Shown: positions 1,621 to 1,690 of the stretch, piece after piece
How the letters are laid out: every line of letters begins with the position of its first letter
How positions within the stretch are numbered: position 1 is the stretch's first letter
Source of the DNA: Escherichia phage T7
Sequence record: MZ375235.1
DNA length: 38,457 nucleotides
Strand: one strand, 5' to 3'
Made by a program: the position numbers and the translations under genes
Notes under the pieces: model-generated
What the model was told of the DNA's origin: nothing
Database searches by the model: none
Seen by the model: only the letters and a program-made list of their open reading frames with translations

Positions 1621-1624
1621 TAGT

Positions 1625-1685
1625 CTTATCTTACAGGTCATCTGCGGGTGGCCTGAATAGGTACGATTTACTAACTGGAAGAGGC
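1625..1685 (+). promoter_or_regulatory. RNase III processing site R1 (approximate) upstream of gene 1
   Basis: Reference position 3138 minus 1480; intergenic region between fusion ORF and gene 1. Confidence 0.4.
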
Positions 1686-1690
1686 ACTAA

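Follow-up and report, generated by a model that had tools for sequence, protein, structure and literature searches.

Organization of the early region

The window, i.e., the whole stretch of DNA analyzed here (38,457 bp), is a complete phage T7 genome, which is collinear with and nearly identical to the reference genome V01146 and thus belongs to Escherichia phage T7 (Teseptimavirus T7). Its length equals that of the reference minus 1,480 bp (39,937 - 1,480). Bases 1-1256 showed no difference between the window and V01146; after base 1256, the window tracks reference 2737-39937 with six substitutions and no indels over 37,201 bases. The offset between the two sequences is fixed at 1,480 bp from the junction through the right end, which confirms the constant offset described in an earlier note on this DNA. 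The following features are found in the early region (window coordinates):

925..1620, + strand: in-frame gene 0.3::0.7 fusion ORF, 231 aa (ORF list; alignment to reference gp0.3 and gp0.7)
1244..1256, + strand: deletion junction with the sole remaining copy of AGGAAGTCGAGGA (reference copies at 1244-1256 and 2724-2736)
1257..1620, + strand: retained 3' part of gene 0.7 (121 aa, non-kinase), identical to reference 2737-3100
1621..1690, + strand: spacer between genes 0.7 and 1, 70 bp, 0 mismatches to reference 3101-3170
1633 (reference 3113): minor E. coli promoter C (V01146 annotation)
1691..4342, + strand: gene 1, T7 RNA polymerase, 883 aa, intact, identical to reference 3171-5822 and annotated in MZ375236.1

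The fusion ORF joins Ocr residues 1-110 to gp0.7 residues 239-359 (the C-terminal 121 aa), with the 3' end and the stop codon of gene 0.3 replaced by gene 0.7 sequence. The Pfam ocr family (PF08684) was matched completely by fusion residues 3-103 and a PHROGs ocr-like family by residues 1-128; the PHROGs serine-threonine kinase profile was matched by residues 103-231 at profile positions 233-366 (of 366). As this last match begins at position 233, the first 232 positions of the kinase-family profile are missing. Pfam holds no gp0.7 model, and the loss of the kinase part is shown by PHROGs. Judging from these sequence comparisons, the gp0.7 kinase lies in the lost residues 1-238. The retained part of gp0.7 is dispensable for kinase activity and may serve host transcription shut-off (Michalewicz & Nicholson 1992, cited in PMC7261183). 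In MZ375236.1 and OL964750.1, the ORF at 925-1620 is labelled "protein kinase" by GenBank; this product name is misleading, as the ORF encodes an Ocr fusion without the kinase part.

The earlier note had measured exactly 70 bp between the stop of the fusion ORF (1620) and the start of gene 1 (1691), which the ORF list bears out, and had taken this interval as the site from which early genes are absent. However, the wild-type spacer is also 70 bp long (gene 0.7 stop at reference 3100, gene 1 start at 3171), and positions 1621-1690 reproduce it base for base; the lesion is instead located at 1244-1256, inside the 231-aa fusion ORF and approx. 370 bp upstream of the spacer. By alignment, the spacer before gene 1 and everything rightward of it are untouched by the deletion, and gene 1 and the R1 region, both of which the note had described as kept, are identical to the reference. 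A sigma-70 consensus scan recovered promoters A1, A2 and A3 and missed the weak promoter C; promoter C is thus taken as retained because the sequence here is identical to that of the annotated reference. A hairpin predicted at window 1622-1668 (-21.2 kcal/mol; z = -1.6, i.e., modestly better than shuffled sequences) would fit the R1 RNase III site. A scan of window 1-6500 at Rfam gathering thresholds found no family, and thus no model match to the RNase III sites.

Deletion endpoints and the 13-bp direct repeat

The DNA absent from the window corresponds to reference 1257-2736 (1,480 bp). As the left register matches the reference through 1256 and the right register matches back to 1244, the register of the deletion is ambiguous across a 13-bp repeat and ranges from 1244-2723 to 1257-2736. 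According to the V01146 annotation, the following features are deleted (reference coordinates):

within 1257-2736: last six codons and stop codon of gene 0.3
1278-1433: gene 0.4
1496-1639: gene 0.5
1514: E. coli promoter B
1636-1972: gene 0.6A/B
2021-3100: gene 0.7, of which codons 1-238 are deleted

Genes 0.4, 0.5 and 0.6A/B, promoter B and the kinase part of gp0.7, all reported as absent in the earlier note, thus fall within the missing reference segment. The same holds for the RNase III site R0.5, which has no annotation in V01146 and which we take to be located at about reference 1468 (Dunn & Studier 1983), hence inside the deleted segment. Because R0.5 is gone, the mRNAs of genes 0.3 and 0.7 would merge into one R0.3-to-R1 transcript. 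Searches of the whole window with blastn, tblastn and k-mers found no relocated copy of the deleted segment, gp0.4, gp0.5, gp0.6A or the N-terminal part of gp0.7, as the note had anticipated. The sole match of the deleted segment was between the R0.5 region (reference 1428-1472) and window 4368-4411 (R1.1), with 80% identity over 45 nt; this match reflects the paralogy of two RNase III processing sites, and wild-type T7 has the same match. Among the lost products, gp0.4 is an FtsZ inhibitor and gp0.6 an MreB inhibitor (PMC5624674), in agreement with the functions quoted previously. The phage would not phosphorylate host targets and would be without the FtsZ and MreB inhibitors.

A repeat search of the reference identified AGGAAGTCGAGGA as two direct-repeat copies with 100% identity and a spacing of 1,480 bp, one at the 3' end of gene 0.3 and the other in codons 235-239 of gene 0.7. 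This sequence is the longest exact direct repeat within reference 900-3200 and is found in only two copies genome-wide. The deletion is scarless, and its endpoints are located within ORFs, exactly in this natural 13-bp repeat. Overall, the 13-bp repeat, which the earlier note overlooked along with the published name of the allele, explains the deletion event. Because one copy of a short perfect repeat was lost without a scar together with everything between the copies, we infer from the repeat structure a slipped-strand or microhomology misalignment. The two AGGAAGTCGAGGA copies would misalign during replication, and slipped-strand or microhomology recombination would then drop one repeat copy and the intervening 1,467 bp, i.e., 1,480 bp in total. 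The same repeat-misalignment origin has been proposed previously (PMC7261183).

As the break is located exactly in a repeat, where assemblers can mis-join, the missing region could also represent an assembly or sequencing artefact in which the sequence between the repeats collapsed. We assign this explanation hardly any probability, as a 13-bp repeat is far below read length and cannot collapse 1.5 kb, the outcome is an in-frame ORF, the genome length is consistent throughout, and several other records and papers share the junction.

Recurrence of the junction in other genomes

The record closest to the window, MZ375236.1 ("Mutant Escherichia phage T7 clone T7_20S"), is equal in length and differs at four bases (window positions 162, 3925, 24484 and 33615); the window carries the reference base at all four. 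None of the public records searched was identical to the window. The six substitutions that distinguish the window from V01146 (window positions 18326, 23205, 24763, 31539, 32692 and 33783) are all missense and are located in virion, tail or internal-core genes. The resulting changes, by gene, are:

7.3: R91H
11: A153E
12: T468A
16: G809S and A1193V
17: K214E

Four of these substitutions (18326, 23205, 24763 and 33783) are common to clone T7_10L and are therefore older than the present clone.

Eight T7 records other than MZ375236.1 also align across the junction, i.e., four further CiPGr clones, which carry the identical junction, as does MZ375236.1, and the recombinants PV223880-PV223883, which match it with a single gap. 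In PV223882.1, the recombinant examined in detail, 1,481 bp are gone (one extra base, at window-equivalent position 1257), which results in a frameshift; no CDS is annotated there. The full region is present in the sibling clone T7_10L of the same series as the window; the allele thus rose or was sampled after the T7_10L stage. Other clones of this series show different, smaller deletions in the region.

MZ375236.1 is a mutant T7 clone that probably belongs to the CiPGr genome-reduction study (PMC9825161), judging from its record title and accession series. In that study, Cas9 and 2 × 50-bp homology templates were combined with serial transfer, and the cassettes remove a single gene or a 100-bp piece (PMC9825161). 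This provenance would be compatible with deliberate engineering, in which a CiPGr CRISPR/Cas9 homology template set the endpoints of the deletion, but we consider this highly improbable. As compared to the cassettes described, the deletion truncates two genes and removes another three or four entirely. Moreover, its endpoints lie inside ORFs and coincide exactly with a natural 13-bp repeat, without a scar, which is unlike the template-set endpoints described in PMC9825161. The different, smaller deletions in clones of the same series also argue against a designed endpoint, as does the fact that reports of an identical junction go back to the 1970s and come from unrelated laboratories. Besides growth-rate selection, cuts made by Cas9 within the interval may have stimulated the spontaneous repeat-mediated deletion or selected for it.

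A 1,489-bp variant of the deletion, of independent origin, was fixed in another laboratory's T7, which had been pre-adapted to an Amberless host (PMC8923235). This variant fuses the same two genes, loses the same genes and involves the same repeat cluster as the window. It differs in using an overlapping 10-bp repeat, GAGGAAGTCG (reference 1243 and 2732), with nine more bases lost and a fusion that is three residues shorter (EEV/ARQ as compared to EEVEEV/ARQ).

A 228-aa ocr::0.7 fusion ORF that arose independently was also found in Yersinia phage YpP-Y (NC_047939.1, 35025-35711), a distinct Teseptimavirus species, and its junction, CTTGAGGAAGTCGCACGA, would fit a deletion between GAGGAAGTCG copies. 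RefSeq calls this fusion "serine-threonine kinase" though the kinase part is absent. In the nearest full-length relatives of YpP-Y (~90-93% identity, e.g., Salmonella phage 3A_8767), ocr and the kinase are separate, with small ORFs between them. Salmonella phage 3A_8767 (~93% identity) keeps the 13-bp and the 10-bp repeat in two copies each, and because it conserves both repeats, the deletion hotspot exists outside T7.

These genomes also bear on the direction of the change. Insertion and deletion are formally symmetrical, and it is only on this ground that the short form could be taken as ancestral, with reference T7 having gained 1.5 kb by insertion. The separate ocr and kinase, the small ORFs between them and the presence of both repeats in Teseptimaviruses at ~90-93% identity speak against an insertion, as does the full region in sibling clone T7_10L, and we regard an insertion as vanishingly improbable as compared to a deletion between the repeats.

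It is tempting to hypothesize that the repeat pair could be a maintained contingency switch, with which T7-like phages would frequently discard the kinase together with the 0.4-0.6 module in fast-growing hosts; if true, the repeat pair would represent more than an accidental laboratory hotspot. We consider this very unlikely, however. The basis for the idea is thin, i.e., one repeat-conserving relative and a single species carrying a parallel fusion, and the shared EEVEE/KEVEE coding explains the conservation of the repeats equally well.

Correspondence with deletion H1 and other early-region deletions

Isaev 2020 (PMC7261183) described a 1,480-bp deletion (positions 1256-2735) with repeats AGGAAGTCGAGG and a 231-aa fusion (110 + 121 aa). 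The same paper names the allele "deletion H1 of Studier" or "0.3-0.7 fusion", citing Simon & Studier 1973 and Cunningham et al. 1997. The window likewise shows a 1,480-bp deletion, one repeat copy and an in-frame 231-aa ORF, and genes 0.4, 0.5 and 0.6 are gone. We are thus nearly certain that the window represents T7 with the spontaneous H1 deletion, presumably generated by misalignment of the 13-bp repeats. The equation with the historical H1 isolate, which was heteroduplex-mapped in 1973, rests on the statement in PMC7261183. The allele, its repeat-mediated origin, the fusion protein and the phenotypes have all been published already, and none of them is new here.

H1 emerges spontaneously when T7 is grown in rich medium at 37 °C (PMC7261183), and gp0.7 is deleterious in rich media, its mutation or deletion being common on serial transfer (PMC2680503). 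Because gp0.7 is deleterious under these conditions, the growth advantage of losing it in rich medium would drive repeated sweeps of the allele in passaged stocks, the serial-transfer clone T7_20S being the present case. The earlier suggestion of a viable T7 deletion strain is thus supported, and the known allele is favoured, not just tolerated, in rich-medium passage (PMC2680503). Phage with the fusion overcome EcoKI, and BREX restricts them ~100-fold, as compared to ~10-fold for wild type (PMC7261183). By analogy with the same allele in the literature, type I restriction escape would be kept and BREX escape would be partial in the phage represented by the window.

The practical worth of these findings is in annotation and strain bookkeeping, for which T7 ΔH1 (0.3::0.7 fusion) is the proper label. 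Users of such stocks should expect normal type I restriction escape and weaker BREX escape, with the activities of the gp0.7 kinase, gp0.4 and gp0.6 all absent.

Studier's C74 was tried as an identity for the deletion and dropped, as C74 is described with gene 0.3 intact and PMC7261183 names the junction H1. C74, which is found in T7 cloning-vector backbones (PMC4128545), is likewise an early-region deletion of the classical spontaneous type and preserves the anti-restriction function. Compared by description only, C74 differs in leaving gene 0.3 intact, whereas in the window the 3' end and stop codon of gene 0.3 are replaced.

The recombinants PV223880-PV223883 share with the window the junction region and the genes lost. 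The predicted product of PV223882 differs in consisting of Ocr residues 1-111 and a 20-aa tail (131 aa in total), without the gp0.7 tail, and is similar to the truncating secondary mutants of PMC7261183, in which anti-BREX activity is restored. H1 itself agrees with the window in the place of the deletion, the flanking repeat and the 231-aa fusion, and genes 0.4, 0.5 and 0.6 are wholly lost in both. While the locus is the same, the repeat is read here as 13 bp (AGGAAGTCGAGGA) as compared to 12 in PMC7261183, and beyond the H1 locus the window adds the six missense substitutions in genes 7.3, 11, 12, 16 and 17.
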